From a virus, in IMG/VR virus record IMGVR_UViG_3300008222_000005: 7,068 nucleotides of DNA. One strand, 5' to 3'. How positions within the stretch are numbered: the first letter of the stretch is position 1; every line of letters starts with the position of its first letter. The notes under the pieces are model-generated. The model did no database searches and had not been told where the DNA came from. It saw only the letters and a list, made by a program, of their open reading frames with translations. Of the stretch, positions 124 through 7,068 are shown piece by piece. A program made the position numbers and the translations under genes.

Positions 124-246
124 CAAACGCTCAGCATTTTCAATTAACCATAAAACTGCTTTGCTTTTTGTTGAATGATAAGATGAATCCATAAACTTAC
201 TTAAATATTTCTCTTGGTTCTCATCAAGTCTTAATGTAATAGCCAT
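31..246 (-). CDS. Ribbon-helix-helix (CopG/Arc/MetJ-like) DNA-binding protein, 71 aa; candidate phage regulator
   Basis: The N-terminus MAITLRLDENQEKYLSKFMD...SKAVLWLIENAERL fits a beta-strand/helix/helix RHH pattern. A strong SD (AAGGAG) lies 7 nt upstream of the ATG at 246. An extended -10 promoter lies just upstream. The last ~25 codons overlap two TGATAGCA copies. Confidence 0.7.
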   Translation of the reverse strand: MAITLRLDENQEKYLSKFMDSSYHSTKSKAVLWLIENAERLVESDKKLNAITDAHERKTSAENLLSDLLTR

Positions 247-278
247 TGTTTAACTCCTTTTGATTTGTTTATTCGTCT

Positions 279-287
279 ATTATAACA
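279..287 (-). promoter_or_regulatory. Extended -10 promoter element (TGTTATAAT on the minus strand) for the 71-aa RHH gene
   Basis: The reverse complement of 279-287 reads TGTTATAAT, matching TGnTATAAT. It lies ~33 nt upstream of the ATG at 246. The -35 position overlaps the iteron at 302-309. Confidence 0.55.
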
Positions 288-425
288 AAATCAAGATAAA
301 ATGATAGCATTTAAACGACTTGATAAGTTGTTTTGATAGCAAAAGTGATATTGGTCACGATTGCATTTTGATACCCGATTATCAAAACTCTAATTTGATA
401 AATCAAAATTGGAATTTGATTTGCT

Positions 426-447
426 TGGTTTTGCTATCAAAAAACCA
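426..447 (-). other. 7-bp stem hairpin presenting TTGATAGC in its 8-nt loop on the gene-sense strand; candidate Rep nick site / plus-strand origin
   Basis: Stem 426-432 (TGGTTTT) pairs with 441-447 (AAAACCA). Loop 433-440 reads TTGATAGC on the minus strand. This is the only iteron copy oriented on the gene-sense strand. Confidence 0.35.
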
Positions 448-505
448 TTACCGGTTCGTGATTTTGATAGCAATAAGTCGCCCTGGCAAAACAATATTGA
501 TAGCA

Positions 506-1726
506 TTAATTCATAGCAACAATAGAGTTAATAGGCTCCGCAGCATCAGGGTTAGATTCCTCTTGTTCTTCAATTTCAGGAGCGCAAGTAACAACACGCC
601 TAAACTCATTATAAGTAAGCGTATAAACACACTCAGTTAAAGCTGAGACAGAATAGCCAATATCCGATAAATCAGCATTCGTGGTTTTAAACATAAACTT
701 ACTATTCAAATAAACATCAAAGTAAATAATATCTAGAACTGAATCAGAATCAGTACTTAATGTATTACCAATCCTTTGATATTTAACCTGCCGCATACTA
801 CCAGTAGCATAAAAATCATAATTATCTAATGGCCCTAAAGAACCATACAAATTTTCATTATCAGAAATTATATAATTAGGATTAAATTTATCACTATCAG
901 AGTGTGGCTTTACTGACATGGGTAAGTTTGAATCTAAAGGCAGAACATCAGAATCAAAATCAGCATCAACGGTGACAGCTGGCGTTTCAACAACAGGCAA
1001 AGGATTATTTTTAGACTGATGATCAAAATAAAGATTAACCAAAATACCAATACCTAATATCATAAATATTGCAGAGCCGACGACAGGCCAAGAACGCCAG
1101 ATAGATTTAACATCACCAGCATGTGCTTCTTTTACTGCGTCATTAGATGCAGTGTGAGATTGGTAATATTTAAAATACGTCTTTTTATATTTTCGCTGAG
1201 AAGTATTAACAGTTTCACCAGCTGCACCAGTTCTAACTTTTTGCGTATAAGTGTTCGGAGAGCCTAACGCGGTATTTTTTTGGCATGAATAAGTAAGCTC
1301 TATCATGTCTTTAATATCACGATTTAACTTTCGCAGATTTTGAGTAATAAGAACAATATCGATACCATGATGACGATGCATTGAATACCATTCTAAAATA
1401 GGAACATTACAACCGCGAGTGGGTAAAACCATATGGGCTTCATCGACAACATAAAGCGCAGCCTGACCCTTATCATTACGCCATTCATCACTATAATCTT
1501 TAATAGTAGAAAACGGACGTTCATTAGAGCCAAAATCTGTAAGTTTACCGTCAACAACTAAAACAAGTTCTCTAACTTCTTCACCGAATGTTTTAACTAA
1601 TAATTCAACATTTAAAGGTAAATTAGTTATAACTTTACGACCTTTAGAAAGCGCTGGGATAATATGATAAACAACAGCCTCATAAGACTTGCCGCCTCCG
1701 GGCTTTCCTACTATTCCATAAATCAT
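506..1726 (-). CDS. zot: Zot / pI-family phage assembly ATPase (zonular occludens toxin-like P-loop NTPase), 406 aa
   Basis: Walker A GKPGGGKS (1685-1708), Walker B LYVVDEAH (1433-1456) and a central TM segment WPVVGSAIFMILGIGILVNLYF. The start overlaps the upstream stop (TAATG at 1724-1728). It occupies the canonical position after the pVI-like gene. Confidence 0.9.
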   Translation of the reverse strand: MIYGIVGKPGGGKSYEAVVYHIIPALSKGRKVITNLPLNVELLVKTFGEEVRELVLVVDGKLTDFGSNERPFSTIKDYSDEWRNDKGQAALYVVDEAHMVLPTRGCNVPILEWYSMHRHHGIDIVLITQNLRKLNRDIKDMIELTYSCQKNTALGSPNTYTQKVRTGAAGETVNTSQRKYKKTYFKYYQSHTASNDAVKEAHAGDVKSIWRSWPVVGSAIFMILGIGILVNLYFDHQSKNNPLPVVETPAVTVDADFDSDVLPLDSNLPMSVKPHSDSDKFNPNYIISDNENLYGSLGPLDNYDFYATGSMRQVKYQRIGNTLSTDSDSVLDIIYFDVYLNSKFMFKTTNADLSDIGYSVSALTECVYTLTYNEFRRVVTCAPEIEEQEESNPDAAEPINSIVAMN

Positions 1727-2034
1727 TAGCTACCCAACCTTACAAAAGGAATTAATTGAAGAATCAAACGTATACCAATAGCAGAAGAAATAATGACAAG
1801 CGCATTAGGCAAACCGACCTGAACAAAAACCCAAGCGACTTGTGAAGGAATAGCACTCATATAAGAACTAACATCCATTTGACCAAACAAACCAGTAAGA
1901 CCAGAAAGCAAATAAGTTACAGCTGAAAAAACTGACTCTAAAGCCCATAAAAACAAGTCTTTCAATGCAGTAATTAACGTAAGAAACAAACGATAAAAGA
2001 AAACCGCTATACCATCAAAAAAATCAGTAAGCAT
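1726..2034 (-). CDS. pVI-like / Ace-position minor coat membrane protein, 102 aa
   Basis: Very hydrophobic with multiple predicted TM stretches. It lies between the pIII-like and Zot genes, as in Ff (gVI) and CTXphi (ace), and is translationally coupled to zot. Confidence 0.7.
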   Translation of the reverse strand: MLTDFFDGIAVFFYRLFLTLITALKDLFLWALESVFSAVTYLLSGLTGLFGQMDVSSYMSAIPSQVAWVFVQVGLPNALVIISSAIGIRLILQLIPFVRLGS

Positions 2035-2039
2035 AATTA

Positions 2040-3578
2040 TTAACCCCCAAATATCATACTTCTAGCAGATGCTAAAGCAGTAAAAACAATACAAAATCTA
2101 ATAAACGACCATATAAATCCAAATCTTGAAATGAGATCGCCACAACCGTAGTGACCAAAAACGCCAAAATCTAAACACAATTCAAATGATGGTGCTGAAG
2201 CAGAACTTAAATCTAATGACGTAAAACTTTTAGATAAATTATAAAGAGGACCATTTTTTATATTGGTAACAAATGAAGATACAAGACCATTTAAACCATT
2301 TTGATAATAACTATTTCTAAAACCAATGCAGGTATCATTTTTATAACAATTACCATCACCAGAAGTATCGACAGTACCAAGGTCATCAAGCTTTTCACCT
2401 AACGAATCAAGTTTTTGACCCAAACCATCAAAACCATCTTGATTTATTTTACCAAGACCATCAAAGCCAGAATCTAAATTATCACCAAGACCATCAACCT
2501 TATTGCCAAGTCCATCAATCCCACCGCTAAGATCCCCGAACTTATCACCAAGCAAATTAAAACCATCAGCGGTAGTTGTACCAAGTTCATTAAAGCCGTG
2601 TTCAGTCGAGGATCTAATGGCATCCAAACCTAGAGTGCTAGAGGATTCCAGAGAGGACAATTTAGATAATAACTCTTTATTATCAGGACTCGTAGGGTCT
2701 GGATTAGTTGGGTCTGGATTAGTTGGGTCTGGATTAGTTGGGTCTGGAGGAGTGTTAATATTACATTCAGTTTTAACTTTTTTTGTCAGCTCACTACAAC
2801 TTTTAATAACAAAACTAAATGTATTATTACCAGCTCTCATAGAACAAAGCGCCCTATTTGAATTAACTTTTGAAACAGCCGCAGAAGATGAACAATATGT
2901 TTTAGTTGGGTCTTCACTTTCATCTCCACAATTAAGCATGCAAGGCAAATCACCACCGCCACCGCCACCAGTAGAACCACCAGAACCACCAGAACCACCA
3001 GAACCACCAGAACCACCAGAACCACCAGAACCACCAGAACCACCGCCAGTATTAGGGTCAATAGGGTCAGGATTAGGATTGCCTTGTTCGCCTAATGGGT
3101 CATCATCACTCGTTTCAAAATCAGTGCAGGAAGATAAATATTGACCTTTTTCAGAATCACACCTCTCATTAAAAAAAAGAGGTGCCAAGCAAGAAGCCTT
3201 AGATGATTCACGAGCTTGATTAACTTCATCAGAACCACAAAAATCTGGCTCAGGCTCAGGCTCAGGCTCAGGAGGTGGAGTATAAGCCCTTAAATAAACA
3301 TACCCTTTCGTTTGTTTATATCTAGAACCGCATGAAGGTTTCATATTAATCCAAAAAGACAATTTTCTACCAGTAGCTGAAGTTGGAGTGACATATGTAA
3401 TAAATTGACCGTTAGACATCGGTAAACACTGATTTGTCAACGCTGCTTGAGCCTCTGTATAACTAGCATAAGTTTTACCAACATAACCAGCAGGTAAATT
3501 ACCACCCGAAATTTGAACACCAGCAAAAGAGTTAAACGAACTCAAATAAAGTATCAATAAAAAAAATATTTTTCTCAT
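2040..3578 (-). CDS. pIII-like minor coat / host-adsorption protein, 512 aa (start trimmed to the internal Met of the 546-aa ORF)
   Basis: Signal peptide MRKIFFLLILYLSSFNSFA begins at the ATG at 3578, directly after the terminator. Cys-containing modules are separated by (EP)n, (GGS)8 and (PDPTN)n linkers. A Gly/Asp-rich DGLG repeat region and a hydrophobic C-terminal anchor (FGFIWSFIRFCIVFTALA) follow. The architecture matches Ff g3p. Confidence 0.8.
   Translation of the reverse strand: MRKIFFLLILYLSSFNSFAGVQISGGNLPAGYVGKTYASYTEAQAALTNQCLPMSNGQFITYVTPTSATGRKLSFWINMKPSCGSRYKQTKGYVYLRAYTPPPEPEPEPEPDFCGSDEVNQARESSKASCLAPLFFNERCDSEKGQYLSSCTDFETSDDDPLGEQGNPNPDPIDPNTGGGSGGSGGSGGSGGSGGSGGSGGSTGGGGGGDLPCMLNCGDESEDPTKTYCSSSAAVSKVNSNRALCSMRAGNNTFSFVIKSCSELTKKVKTECNINTPPDPTNPDPTNPDPTNPDPTSPDNKELLSKLSSLESSSTLGLDAIRSSTEHGFNELGTTTADGFNLLGDKFGDLSGGIDGLGNKVDGLGDNLDSGFDGLGKINQDGFDGLGQKLDSLGEKLDDLGTVDTSGDGNCYKNDTCIGFRNSYYQNGLNGLVSSFVTNIKNGPLYNLSKSFTSLDLSSASAPSFELCLDFGVFGHYGCGDLISRFGFIWSFIRFCIVFTALASARSMIFGG
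2695..2748 (-). repeat. 15-bp tandem repeat x3.6 (GGGTCTGGATTAGTT) encoding the PDPTN linker of the pIII-like protein
   Basis: Perfect units at 2695-2709, 2710-2724 and 2725-2739, with a partial unit at 2740-2748. Confidence 0.95.
2973..3044 (-). repeat. 9-bp tandem repeat x8 (AGAACCACC) encoding the (GGS)8 linker of the pIII-like protein
   Basis: Eight perfect consecutive units. They are flanked by further Gly codons (GGGGGG on the C-terminal side). Confidence 0.95.
3247..3270 (-). repeat. 6-bp tandem repeat x4 (GGCTCA) encoding the (EP)n linker of the pIII-like protein
   Basis: Four perfect units encoding PEPEPEPEP. Confidence 0.9.
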
Positions 3579-3588
3579 AATTAAACCC

Positions 3589-3613
3589 AAAAAAAAGCCC
3601 CGATAAACGAGGC
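3589..3613 (-). terminator. Rho-independent terminator between the coat-gene block and the pIII-like gene
   Basis: The minus strand reads GCCTCG-TTTAT-CGGGGC (6-bp stem with one G-U pair) followed by T8 (3596-3589). The position matches the Ff terminator after gVIII. Confidence 0.75.
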
Positions 3614-3619
3614 AATTAA

Positions 3620-3709
3620 TTAACGTAAATTTTGACTGACAACAAATGCTGAAATTGCACCTACAAGAACATAAACGCAAATAACAACATCATGTATGAC
3701 AATAGCCAT
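3620..3709 (-). CDS. Unlisted 29-aa hydrophobic ORF (MAIVIHDVVICVYVLVGAISAFVVSQNLR); candidate pVII/pIX-like minor coat protein
   Basis: The ATG at 3709 lies 1 nt after the coat-gene stop (TAG at 3713-3711), with AAGG 6 nt upstream. It has a single hydrophobic helix with a basic C-terminus and a TAA stop at 3620-3622, and is followed by the terminator. Hand-translated; it is below the ORF-track size cutoff. Confidence 0.4.
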   Translation of the reverse strand: MAIVIHDVVICVYVLVGAISAFVVSQNLR

Positions 3710-3710
3710 T

Positions 3711-3932
3711 CTATGCCTTGCTGATTACACGCTTAGCAAGACCAATGCCTTTAACTGACATAGCAATACCAACAATCACAACACCAAGACCAGCAACAGC
3801 AGTGCCAACAGAGCTAAGATCGATAGCTGTAAAGTACGCATCAATACTTGAACCTTCTGCAAAAGACGGAGCTGAAACAGCAGCAACTACAACAAAAGCA
3901 CCAATTTTTTTTAACTGTTTAAATTTTTTCAT
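3711..3932 (-). CDS. Major coat protein (pVIII-like), 73-aa precursor
   Basis: Signal peptide MKKFKQLKKIGAFVVVAAVSAPSFA. The mature ~48 aa has an acidic N-terminus (EGSSIDAYFTAID), a hydrophobic core (VGTAVAGLGVVIVGIAM) and a basic C-terminus (KGIGLAKRVISKA), the textbook inovirus coat layout. Confidence 0.9.
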   Translation of the reverse strand: MKKFKQLKKIGAFVVVAAVSAPSFAEGSSIDAYFTAIDLSSVGTAVAGLGVVIVGIAMSVKGIGLAKRVISKA

Positions 3933-3934
3933 TT

Positions 3935-4174
3935 TTAAATCTTCCGTATTAAATTTTGAGCTATCTTTATTGGGTAGCTAGCTAAGAACCCTACGCCTAG
4001 AATGGCTACAAAACCAAAACTAAACGCTGCTGAAATATCAGAGGGACTTACAGAAACATAATCAAACCAGAAGTCATACTCAGATTTAGAAACCAAAATA
4101 TAACCATTACAATCTTCAATATCTTGATTGGTTTTCTGTAAAAAACCCTGTGAATTAACAGCAACGCAAAGCAT
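3935..4174 (-). CDS. 79-aa protein with a C-terminal TM helix and basic tail; possible minor virion/membrane protein
   Basis: The C-terminus is AAFSFGFVAILGVGFLASYPIKIAQNLIRKI. It is tightly packed between the ssDNA-binding-position gene (3-nt gap) and the coat gene (2-nt gap). I recognise no family. Confidence 0.55.
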   Translation of the reverse strand: MLCVAVNSQGFLQKTNQDIEDCNGYILVSKSEYDFWFDYVSVSPSDISAAFSFGFVAILGVGFLASYPIKIAQNLIRKI

Positions 4175-4801: not shown

Positions 4802-4803
4802 AT

Positions 4804-4820
4804 GGGGGCGAACCCCCTTT
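4804..4820. terminator. Short GC hairpin (GGGGG-CGAA-CCCCC) plus TTT between convergent genes; probable bidirectional terminator
   Basis: Stem 4804-4808 / 4813-4817, loop CGAA, T-run 4818-4820. It sits in the 22-nt gap between the stops of the 68-aa gene (4801) and rep (4824). Confidence 0.55.
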
Positions 4821-4823
4821 ATA

Positions 4824-6491
4824 TTAATTATTCAAATCTACATCGTAAGGGACAAGGGGCCGCTGCTTCAAAGATATTCTATTGTCTAAGAATAGCCCTT
4901 TAAAAAATCCCTTTCGGTGCTTCGAATTTGCAATTGAATAAACATCATCAACAATAGATTCTAAATAATCTGTGTTGTGGTCTAGTTCTAAAGGTAATTG
5001 AGATTTTATAACCTCAACTTTTACCCGCTCATTAATAACATCTTCTTCAAATTCATCATGAGATTTACCACGAGCATTAAAACCAAACTCAAAAACTTCA
5101 AAATCATCAGCAAATTTATCCAAACCAAAAAGGTATTGCGCAACTGCAGAAGAACCACCAGATTCAGCTAAATCTAGCACTAAATTTCTATGTTTAAGTT
5201 TTAATATTTGCTTCCACTCAGTCGGTAATATGTGACAAAGTAAGTCCGCTTTATCTTCTTCTTGAGCAATTATTTCCTCATCAGTAGCTTGAGCACCTAA
5301 ACCAAAATGAGCACGTAAACCTTTTGACCACCTCAGCATATTTTTCCCCTTGATAGCACGAGCATAAAACAAAAATAAAAATTTAGCCTCTTTACGTTGT
5401 TCCGCTGTTAAATCCGAATCAACAGAATCAGAAAGTAAAGCCCATGGCGTTTTAGAACCTTTTTTACCTAGCTTTGTCATACCCTTGGTCGCTTCATCCA
5501 TCATATCCCAAGTAATTTTTTTACCTGATTTAGTCTCTAATATTTGTTCATCACCGCCAAATTTAGAAATATATTCACCCGCTTTATCACCGTTTTGTAT
5601 ATCAAGACCATTCATATTAGGCATACCCAAACCAGCGCTAACAGATACAGACTTCCAACGATTTAAAATATGAATCCATGCATCAGATTGTTCATTTGAA
5701 ATATAACCTTTCTCACTTCTTTCGGTAGAGGGTAATTTTTTATCTGAAACGACAATTAAATGAAAATGCGGATGCCAACCATTAGCGCCATGCAAGACCT
5801 CAAATGATCTTACGTTACCAATGATCCCATATTTATTTTTAAATCGAGTTGCCCAAGCACCAGACCAAAACTTAGAAAGTGCATCAGATATTTTAGGTAA
5901 TAAATCTTCTATTTTATCAGCTGCTGTATGCGGAGTTGTTAACGTCAAAAGTGATAAGTTATTATTCATCGCCTCAGCTTGATTGGCCATCATGCGCAAC
6001 TCATTAGATTTACGCTCATTAATTTTTGCCGCACAAATTGGGCAAGTTGCAGCACTAGCGCAAGAACTAAGCCCAGAATAAAAAGACTTTTTATTAGTTG
6101 AAGATTTAACGATTGAGATAGTCGAAGAAACATTAATTCGAGTACATGAACAAGTGCGATGATAAACAGGGTAGCCGCCTTTGTTTATTGGCGTGTTATC
6201 ACCATGAAACAAATATAAAGCATCTCTTGCAGCATCTTGGAGTTTAAAGCGAATTTTACGAGCTTCCTTGGTGGCTTCAATAGGCGAAAGCTTACCAAGA
6301 ACAACATATTCACCAGTAGATTCATCTAAAAATCCAGCTGATTTTTTAGGGGGGGTAGGTAACTTTGCATATATACCGAGGGGCGCTCGATTTTCCAGTT
6401 CCACCCCCGACGAAACGAGGCCCCCGACTGGAAAATGAGCGCCCTCCGGTAAAGGTGTTGTAAAACCGTCAAATTGTTTGCTATTATTCAT
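4824..6491 (-). CDS. Rolling-circle replication initiator, HUH superfamily, pC194/pUB110 (Rep_1)-like motif set, 555 aa
   Basis: Motif 1 LLTLTTP (5931-5951). Motif 2 HPHFHLIVV (5748-5774, the HUH motif). Motif 3 GEYISKF with candidate catalytic Tyr307 (5559-5579). A Cys cluster (CSC ... C-x5-C-x2-C) lies upstream of motif 1. An extra ~200-aa C-terminal region follows the core. Confidence 0.85.
   Translation of the reverse strand: MNNSKQFDGFTTPLPEGAHFPVGGLVSSGVELENRAPLGIYAKLPTPPKKSAGFLDESTGEYVVLGKLSPIEATKEARKIRFKLQDAARDALYLFHGDNTPINKGGYPVYHRTCSCTRINVSSTISIVKSSTNKKSFYSGLSSCASAATCPICAAKINERKSNELRMMANQAEAMNNNLSLLTLTTPHTAADKIEDLLPKISDALSKFWSGAWATRFKNKYGIIGNVRSFEVLHGANGWHPHFHLIVVSDKKLPSTERSEKGYISNEQSDAWIHILNRWKSVSVSAGLGMPNMNGLDIQNGDKAGEYISKFGGDEQILETKSGKKITWDMMDEATKGMTKLGKKGSKTPWALLSDSVDSDLTAEQRKEAKFLFLFYARAIKGKNMLRWSKGLRAHFGLGAQATDEEIIAQEEDKADLLCHILPTEWKQILKLKHRNLVLDLAESGGSSAVAQYLFGLDKFADDFEVFEFGFNARGKSHDEFEEDVINERVKVEVIKSQLPLELDHNTDYLESIVDDVYSIANSKHRKGFFKGLFLDNRISLKQRPLVPYDVDLNN
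6376..6449. other. 74-nt GC-rich imperfect hairpin/cruciform inside rep codons 15-39
   Basis: 6390-6399 pairs with 6427-6436 (10 bp), G6389 bulges, and 6381-6388 pairs with 6437-6444 (8 bp). After a small internal loop, 6376-6378 pairs with 6447-6449. The 27-nt loop (6400-6426) carries two CGGGGG repeats on the minus strand. Confidence 0.8.
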
Positions 6492-6540
6492 AATGAATTA
6501 TCCTAGAAGCCTGCGAAGCTGTGGTTAATTTAGATTTTTA

Positions 6541-6575
6541 AGCACTATCTGACGCCAATCGGATGGTGCTTTTTC
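6541..6575 (+). other. 12-bp stem hairpin followed by T5; looks like an intrinsic terminator on the plus strand, or an origin/packaging hairpin, in the non-coding region upstream of rep
   Basis: AGCACTATCTGA (6541-6552) pairs with TCGGATGGTGCT (6559-6570) using two G-T wobbles. The loop is CGCCAA, followed by TTTTT (6571-6575). On the minus strand the wobbles become C-A mismatches. Confidence 0.45.
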
Positions 6576-6945: not shown

Positions 6946-7068
6946 CCTTTTTTTAAAAGTTGATAGCAAAAGCGTTTACCTGGTAAGTAAATCTGATAGC
7001 AAATTCTCTGCTGAAGTCTTCCGTTCGTGGGCATCAGTGATAGCATTTAGCTTTTTATCCGATTCAAC
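6946..7068. repeat. Right copy of the 123-bp direct terminal repeat
   Basis: Identical to 1-123. The repeat runs to the window end, so its true extent is unknown. Confidence 0.95.

Follow-up and report, generated by a model that had tools for sequence, protein, structure and literature searches.

A candidate rolling-circle replication origin within the rep coding sequence of an inovirus: a conserved nick-type motif abutted by an exchangeable hairpin

The subject of this work is a hairpin and an adjoining sequence motif within the first 48 codons of rep, a rolling-circle initiator gene (4824..6491, minus strand) carried by IMG/VR record IMGVR_UViG_3300008222_000005. The window, by which we mean the whole 7,068-nucleotide (nt) stretch of DNA that was analyzed, has identical ends (1-123 and 6946-7068, a 123-nt overlap) and therefore represents a single circular genome of 6945 nt. 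The genome is that of a filamentous phage (inovirus), and nearly every gene lies on the minus strand. The genes recognized include Zot/pI (minus strand; Pfam match to PF05707) and those for a major coat protein, an Ace/pVI-like minor coat protein and a pIII-like receptor-binding protein, while an Arc-like repressor is encoded on the plus strand. The rep open reading frame (ORF) encodes 555 amino acids (aa) and was assigned to Rep_1 (PF01446; 9.1e-10, 38.8 bits against a cut-off of 33.2), the family of the pC194 and pUB110 initiators. Rep_1 was the sole Pfam family matched by the protein, and no match to Rep_trans was found. Residues H240, H242, H244 and Y307, which make up the HUH motif and the catalytic tyrosine, were invariant across 34 homologues. 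The rep ATG at 6491 is preceded by AGGA, and when the sequence was read by eye, the stretch from the motif to the conserved Rep domain contained none of the start codons ATG, GTG and TTG in frame. In the absence of an alternative in-frame start downstream of the hairpin, the hairpin must be translated and thus lies truly within coding sequence.

Folding delineated a hairpin of 78 nt (6374..6451, rep codons 14 to 40) on the coding strand, which is the minus strand of the window and presumably the viral plus strand. It begins 43 nt past the rep AUG. An inverted-repeat search returned its arms at 6374-6393 and 6432-6451, in agreement with an earlier reading of this DNA from its letters alone (here called the sequence-only reading), which had described a long hairpin in rep codons 15 to 39; these codons read PEGAHFPVGGLVSSGVELENRAPLG, as it had reported. 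The base of the structure is an outer helix of 5 bp (T6451-G6447 paired with C6378-A6374), separated by a 2x2 internal loop (G6446 A6445 opposite C6380 T6379) from a long GC-rich stem of 18 pairs (G6444-T6427 paired with A6399-C6381). The 5' arm of this stem is GGGCGCTCATTTTCCAGT (6427..6444) and the 3' arm is ACTGGAAAATCGAGCGCCC (6381..6399), in which C6389 is bulged. The apical 27 nt (CGGGGGCCTCGTTTCGTCGGGGGTGGA; 6400..6426, running from C6426 to A6400 on the coding strand) comprise a G-run, a C-rich mini-hairpin with a predicted 5 bp, and a second G-run. The sequence-only reading had also described a local GC-rich island with a C7/A6 homopolymer pair at its flank, and both features are indeed present: the GC fraction is 0.60 in 6350-6449 against about 0.3 to 0.4 in the flanks, and a C7 run (6355-6349) and an A6 run (6347-6342) occupy 6342..6355 on the minus strand, at the 3' end of the motif described below.

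The proposal that a palindrome of this kind is unlikely to arise by chance was borne out when both strands were folded with DNA parameters and the minus strand also with RNA parameters (z of -4.8 to -5.8). With DNA parameters, the minimum free energy was -23.7 kcal/mol on the plus strand (z = -4.82) and -25.5 kcal/mol on the minus strand (z = -5.55), and with RNA parameters it was -48.1 kcal/mol on the minus strand (z = -5.75); none of 200 dinucleotide shuffles matched the stability of the native fold in any of these three settings. Among all 90-nt segments of the genome, the hairpin was the most stable on both strands (-25.5 kcal/mol against a mean of -5.4 and a standard deviation [SD] of 3.0, about 6.6 SD below), and the runner-up, at 389-478, reached -17.1 kcal/mol. 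Several familiar identities were rejected at this point. The hairpin had no Rfam match at E values up to 1, which rules out a known Rfam RNA family, and no tRNA or tmRNA was found there, which rules out a tRNA-derived attP site. An intrinsic terminator was excluded because no T-run follows the stem, and a promoter was excluded by a promoter search of the stem. By eye, there was no resemblance to a dif/XerCD attP site or an integron attC site, and with just two long G-runs the element would not form an intramolecular G-quadruplex.

The sequence-only reading had overlooked a conserved nick-type motif that begins where the hairpin has its 3' foot, so that on the coding strand the one leads directly into the other (CTCG/GTATATATGCAAAGTTAC..., where the slash marks the predicted nick). 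This motif spans 32 nt (6349..6380, minus strand; CTCGGTATATATGCAAAGTTACCTACCCCCCC) and reads CTCG/GTATATATGCAAAGTTACCTACCCCCCC. The comparison on which its recognition is based drew on 105 Rep homologues, 35 viral loci and 80 metagenome loci, with contigs fetched for individual proteins. The closest named protein was a partial "protein rep" from Vibrio anguillarum (55% identical). The phage collection contained no near DNA match and only protein matches below 33% identity, a scan of the genome contig collection returned only distant relatives (24 to 40% identical), and a pattern scan of the collections gave one further true locus, L069, amid chance matches. The N-termini of the Rep homologues could not be aligned as protein, yet nearly all of them finish with the peptide LGIYAKLRTPP, LGNATKLRTPP or PSRYIREVTNPP, and at the DNA level these peptides correspond to a single motif. 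We built a position weight matrix (PWM) from 37 instances of the motif and found that, in most loci that retain the 5' end of rep, the best match was located 470 to 620 nt 5' of the HUH codons. Matches occurred on the sense strand only, antisense maxima never exceeding about 6 bits, and the window contains one match above 15 bits.

The motif was located within an uninterrupted rep ORF at 85 of 85 unique sites, and it was read in frame 0 at 72 of these, in frame 1 at 10 and in frame 2 at 3. For example, the segment translated as LGIYAKL in the window is translated as SRYIREVT in L180 and L099. Since the motif is translated in three frames, the constraint acts on the nucleic acid and not on the protein. 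The distance from the ATG to the motif ranged from 30 to 257 nt among the relatives. The C-tract that closes the motif (6349-6355 in the window) also differs in length, from about C5 to C9 in the relatives L001-L009, L097, L099, L171, L180 and L182, and the frame in which the motif is read varies between relatives.

Across the family, the consensus is CCCCCCTTG/GTAYTAATGCG. The core is CTTGGTA in the family at large, CTTGTTA in one clade, and CTTGATA, the classical nick sequence, in the distant members L026 and L048. We predict that this motif represents the core of the plus-strand, or double-strand, origin (dso), and homology with the CTTG/ATA sites of phiX174 and pC194 would place the nick between G6377 and G6376. 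In pC194 and pUB110, the initiator belongs to the same family (PF01446, with HUH plus Tyr) and the nick core is of the same type, CTTG/ATA as compared to CTTG/GTA. Both plasmids carry the site in non-coding DNA, as CTTGATAATAAGG about 190 nt upstream of repA in pC194 and as CTTGATA 183 nt upstream of repU in pUB110, and the origin of Rep_1 plasmids is normally found upstream of rep (PMC5703833); the nick predicted here, in contrast, falls inside rep, at codons 38-39. In this respect the arrangement resembles phiX174, whose origin is situated within the initiator coding sequence (rep_origin 4306 within gene A, 3981..136) and reads CCCCCAACTTG/ATATTAATAAC. The phiX174 origin is likewise about 30 nt long with a C-rich start, and its CTTG/ATATTAAT compares with CTTG/GTAYTAAT in the family. 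Unlike the locus studied here, it has no evident inverted repeat 5' of the origin (sequence read by eye, not folded), it belongs to a microvirus and not an inovirus, and its initiator is of the Phage_GPA type with two catalytic tyrosines (PMC5714925).

We then asked how the hairpin is conserved. The sequence-only reading had suggested that homologues be examined for conserved pairing, and compensatory changes were found both in a single close comparison and across 18 alignable clusters. L171, whose Rep is 65% identical, was the sole homologue with the hairpin type of the window. Its 27-nt apical region is identical, and two stem pairs are changed on both sides (T-A to G-C and C-G to G-C; pairs 23-74 and 24-73 of alignment A3), with a third pair being compensatory if the bulge shifts. 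Nucleotide identity between the two was 83 to 100% from -58 to +120, as opposed to 43 to 87% elsewhere in the gene. In the 18 alignable clusters, 39 pairs were compensatory and 27 were broken, against 3.75 and 99.5 per slide, respectively, in slid-partner controls; the count of 39 is somewhat inflated because RNAalifold picks structures partly from covariation. Applying MAFFT and RNAalifold to clade A2, the members of which have identical flanks and different hairpins, yielded a poor alignment and a positive covariation term, and we therefore relied on per-cluster alignments with slid-partner controls, together with shuffle and positional controls.

The positional controls gave a consistent picture at the family level. 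For 57 dissimilar clusters, the 95 nt ending at the nick had a mean z of -1.86, with 30 of the 57 below -2 and 17 below -3, whereas in a control segment 150 to 245 nt further into rep the mean z was -0.03 and 3 of 53 fell below -2 (Wilcoxon, 4.6e-6). Domains of at least 14 bp had their 3' end between -8 and +17 of CTTG in 37 of 46 clusters. The apical design of G-run, C-rich mini-hairpin and G-run was detected in at least 9 of the 57 hairpin clusters, compared to 3 on the antisense control, and several apical types reappear across distant Rep clades. With DNA parameters, the sense strand folded better than the antisense strand at 69 of 93 sites (p = 1.5e-8); with RNA parameters, this bias was weak (53 versus 40 sites, p = 0.10). 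About half of the lineages, including L178 (Rep 76% identical), had no strong hairpin at the nick or only a short one. Of the sites lacking structure at the nick, five were examined (L146, L155, L181, L099 and the second site of L147), and each had a strong hairpin elsewhere (z of -4.0 to -5.8). We dropped the idea that the nick nucleotides are always base-paired in the outer helix, as their paired fraction was 0.37 in the family and 0.34 in the control (p = 0.41). Together, these results show that the hairpin is under selection as a nucleic-acid structure.

The sequence of the hairpin, in contrast, tolerates replacement. Between the window and L001, the Reps are 84% identical and the DNA is 93 to 97% identical from the motif onward and 87 to 93% in the leader, and across the hairpin (nt +15 to +100) identity falls to only 30 to 57%. 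Hairpin cassettes are thus swapped between phages independently of Rep. We looked for a Rep specificity patch that tracks the hairpin type, as in the IR-III model of pT181, and found none outside aa 11-33. AlphaFold2 assigned a predicted local distance difference test (pLDDT) score of 27 to 31 over Rep residues 1-50 and below 50 for residues 1-52. Given this lack of tracking elsewhere in Rep and the low pLDDT, the hairpin-encoded peptide (about Rep residues 7-37) looks like a disordered passenger. One could speculate, alternatively, that this peptide, which covaries with the hairpin by construction, helps to recognize the hairpin that encodes it.

The module of hairpin and motif is not confined to genomes like that of the window. 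We also found it in GC-rich replicons of 2.25 to 2.3 kb that code for nothing beyond Rep, a CopG/Arc-like protein and small unknown ORFs; no virion gene was recognized in these mini-replicons. The motif carriers of this kind are L112, L113, L116, L129, L138, L147 and L159; on several of the contigs, two different units that each carry a motif are strung together, and these are likely joins through the common motif that arose as an assembly artefact, although this is a guess. The cultured Pseudomonas inovirus PMBT54 has the module in reduced form, AGGCGGCGAAGCCGCCCTAGGTAGTATTGCGAAATCC, at rep codons 12-28. Close Rep homologues with the motif also adjoin genes that are not inovirus genes, namely, P2-type capsid-scaffold and Ogr/Delta genes at L178 (1554-2834) and HTH_3 regulators at L180 (357-2110) and L181 (810-1538). 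The rep-plus-origin module seems to move between element types. Two diverged rep-hairpin-motif copies are present on one contig of 14,310 nt (L003/L058, IMGVR_UViG_3300025738_000082), one identical to L002 and the other differing in the hairpin and the C-tract; this duplication reflects either two related phages in tandem or a join made during assembly.

We consider it likely that the hairpin and the motif form a replication-origin module of about 110 nt inside the first 48 rep codons. As for the hairpin specifically, we tentatively favor a complementary-strand (minus-strand) origin of the single-strand-origin (sso) type, a reading in which our confidence is slightly less than even. We rank this role first and that of an accessory to the dso second, and the two are not mutually exclusive. 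The sequence-only reading had listed four roles and chosen none of them; its minus-strand origin and its Rep-origin structure are the two that stay in the lead, and its packaging signal and its translation throttle became unlikely, for reasons given below. According to the mechanism we propose, Rep, a Rep_1/HUH nuclease, would nick the coding (viral) strand after CTCG, and the hairpin would act as a structure of the single-stranded plus strand. Because it is positioned directly 5' of the nick, the hairpin would be the last DNA to be displaced in each round of plus-strand synthesis. Once displaced, it would fold and escape single-stranded DNA-binding protein, and a host priming enzyme, the function and identity of which we infer, could then use the folded hairpin so that the single-stranded DNA (ssDNA) is converted to the replicative form (RF).

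Several lines of evidence support the sso-type reading. In Ff phages, the hairpins of the minus-strand origin lie directly 5' of the plus-strand nick. The hairpin studied here resembles them and plasmid ssos in being an ssDNA hairpin just upstream of the predicted nick, where it would be exposed late; the known elements are orientation specific. In most rolling-circle-replicating (RCR) plasmids, the sso is upstream of the dso and hence exposed only late, when the leading strand is nearly complete, so that a location directly 5' of the nick is the usual position of an sso (PMC4595007). Structure matters more than sequence for sso function (PMC4595007), and ssos are exchangeable between replicons (PMC5703833), which is matched here by conservation of structure and by cassette exchange independent of Rep. 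Further support comes from the greater stability of the sense strand over the antisense strand with DNA parameters, from the hairpin being the strongest ssDNA structure of the genome, and from the five sites that lack a hairpin at the nick and have a strong one elsewhere.

A number of observations weigh against the interpretation that we favor. At the nick site, the family core CTTGGTA matches CTTGATA at 6 of 7 positions, but the window core, CTCGGTA, does so at only 5 of 7. The only two sequences of the window's hairpin type, those of the window and L171, do not show significant covariation by themselves (141 of 500 shuffles), and the pattern of hairpins elsewhere in loci that lack one at the nick derives from partial contigs and from z-scores of individual loci. 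Part of the strand asymmetry could stem from the G-rich sense strand. We found no sigma-70-like mimic of an RNA polymerase promoter within the stem, nor did we recognize an ssoA-type CS-6/RSB consensus. The described ssos are in non-coding DNA and are usually longer, mostly 168 to 340 nt, than the 78-nt hairpin (PMC4595007), which is moreover translated. Finally, pC194 has a Rep of the same family and carries a palindrome at a distance of 10 nt on the 5' side of the nick; by analogy, participation in the plus-strand origin would be a serious rival.

This rival explanation holds that the hairpin is an accessory of the plus-strand origin, a palindrome that Rep needs in order to load onto, melt or nick the supercoiled RF, or in order to terminate. 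We regard it as possible but rather unlikely. Beyond the shared initiator family, the precedent is that the pC194 palindrome, AAAGGATTT...AAATCCTTT, is likewise located just 5' of the nick sequence CTTGATA. Initiation in pC194 is reported to need 55 bp, while a 36-bp piece without the 14-bp palindrome is enough for termination (PMC7072734, citing Gros 1989). The tight spacing between the hairpin domains and CTTG across clusters, with the hairpin closely abutting the motif, also fits an accessory role, as does the predicted outer helix, which includes the scissile G/G in both the window and L171. The hairpin of the window is, however, far larger than that of pC194, and it is GC-rich, abuts the motif, varies between close relatives and is translated. 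An essential part of a dso should be constant, but z was below -2 in only about half of the lineages, and L178 lacks a strong hairpin at this position despite its closely related Rep. Cassettes are swapped without a covarying patch in Rep, and pairing of the nick nucleotides did not exceed the control. Moreover, a cruciform requires both strands, whereas it is the sense strand that is the more stable, and the 27-nt GC-rich center should slow cruciform extrusion.

Other systems offer partial parallels to a hairpin next to an HUH nick site. At conjugative oriT sites and at the 3' ends of Helitron and IS91 elements, a GC-rich hairpin is found a few nucleotides 5' of the HUH cleavage site and serves in ssDNA recognition or termination. 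We take this as a lead only; the enzyme families and the processes, conjugative transfer and transposition, differ from those considered here. The sequence-only reading had pointed to pT181-type plasmids, and this analogy holds in part. As in the pT181 family, the candidate origin is within the rep coding region and includes a hairpin or cruciform; in pT181 the peptide encoded there is dispensable (PMC5703833). The initiator, however, is Rep_1 here and Rep_trans in pT181, and the pT181 nick site is single-stranded in the cruciform of the dso palindrome (PMC5703833), whereas the nick predicted here is not in a loop, unlike that in the IR-II hairpin of pT181-type origins, but at the hairpin foot, in a linear motif.

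A third explanation, proposed by the sequence-only reading, is that the hairpin serves the filamentous virion as its packaging (morphogenetic) signal, in the manner of hairpin A of Ff. It has in its favor that the hairpin is the strongest of the genome on the packaged-sense strand, that its 78 nt come close to the roughly 78 nt given for the Ff signal in that earlier reading, and that sense strands fold better than antisense strands. Nevertheless, we consider it very unlikely because the module occurs in the mini-replicons of 2.25 to 2.3 kb, which code for Rep and a CopG/Arc-like protein and have no recognized virion gene. The module also occurs beside non-inovirus genes, and the Zot-encoding inovirus-like relatives L002 and L179 are weakly structured at this position (z of about -2). 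Furthermore, the separate hairpin at 389-478 is in the non-coding region right after the Zot/pI gene. On the Ff genome map, it is the region just after the Zot/pI gene that contains the packaging signal.

The same non-coding region contains an array of the octamer TGATAGCA, which occurs in 12 copies in the window (9 without the terminal duplication) against 0.36 expected. All copies but one cluster in the non-coding DNA that follows the Zot gene, or close by it (1-505 and 6946-7068), as at 16-23, 49-56, 93-100, 302-309, 334-341, 432-439, 465-472 and 498-505; a further copy is at 5351-5358. Within the array, TTTTGATAGCAAAA forms a perfect 14-nt inverted pair (331-344 and 429-442). The array looks like a set of operators for a small regulator, and it is also a candidate for the packaging signal.

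Similarly, the hairpin could act in the rep mRNA, where it would slow or regulate translation of Rep, possibly with a protein binding the same sequence in RNA. The structure is very stable as RNA, and ribosomes must read through it, there being no alternative start downstream. We nonetheless find a role of this kind even more doubtful than packaging, because the distance to the AUG is not conserved and the sense bias with RNA parameters is weak. The hairpin begins beyond the footprint of initiation, which speaks against the throttle on translation initiation that the sequence-only reading had listed, and among relatives it stays beside the DNA motif while the distance to the start codon varies. 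Neither an Rfam family nor, without a T-run, a terminator accounts for it. The least likely explanation of all, that the hairpin is a functionless GC-rich palindromic element inserted in a tolerant, disordered part of rep, would fit complete replacement of the region, the disorder of the encoded peptide and a GC content foreign to the genome, but it is already disfavored by the compensatory changes that keep the pairing, by a loop that is 100% conserved between 65%-identical Reps within a segment better conserved than the rest of the gene, and by the recurrence of structured sequence at this position across dozens of sequence types that are unrelated to each other.

Other features of the window were noted in passing. 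In Rep itself, the residues H111, C114, C116, C144, C150 and C153 were invariant in 34 homologues, which suggests that residues 111-153 (about 6033-6161, minus strand) form a zinc-binding module N-terminal to the HUH domain. Upstream of rep, non-coding DNA at 6540-6571 contains a 13-bp hairpin followed by a T-run on the plus strand, and L001-L007 have hairpins of other sequence at the equivalent position. At the other end of the gene, a GGGGGCGAACCCCC hairpin at 4803-4816 sits precisely between the stop codons of rep and the Arc-like ORF, which converge here, and probably acts as a bidirectional terminator. Perfect tandem repeats occur in the pIII-like ORF at 2695-2748, 2973-3044 and 3247-3272 (15 nt x 3.6, 9 nt x 8 and 6 nt x 4.3, respectively), which code for PDPTN, GGS and PE linkers.

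In the searchable literature, we found no replication origin defined for inoviruses with a Rep_1-type initiator. A literature search aimed at the CTTGGTA motif in rolling-circle replication brought up no prior description, and the paper describing PMBT54 does not mention a replication origin. What we describe is a new arrangement of known rolling-circle parts, in which a nick site of the Rep_1/phiX type is combined with an exchangeable ssDNA hairpin in the translated 5' end of rep, and not a new kind of system.

These findings provide a candidate origin for inoviruses with a Rep_1-type initiator, with the nick predicted at 6377/6376 and the hairpin spanning 6374-6451, and a rule for finding the origin, CTTGGTA 470 to 620 nt 5' of the HUH codons, that applies to most of the roughly 85 to 90 phage and plasmid sites examined. 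They also present an extreme case of dual coding, as one DNA signal is preserved across translation in three frames, and the structured DNA element would be tolerated because the encoded leader is disordered. For annotation, this calls for caution, since the N-terminal "variable region" of these Reps varies through the DNA and not through the protein. The exchange of hairpin cassettes between near-identical phages represents a route of modular evolution. Palindromes that form ssDNA hairpins trigger the Lamassu/DdmABC defence system (PMC11707656), and it may be speculated that pressure from such defences drives the turnover of the cassettes. A broader view, which we hold to be improbable but worth stating, is that all of the cis-acting replication signals, that is, the nick site, the complementary-strand origin and, in phages, perhaps the packaging signal, are carried in a portable cassette within the first approximately 50 rep codons. 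If this were true, the rep gene alone would be a complete replicon able to hop from one inovirus, mini-plasmid or other mobile element to another, and swapped hairpins would retune it to the priming machinery of a host or allow it to evade defences that sense hairpins.

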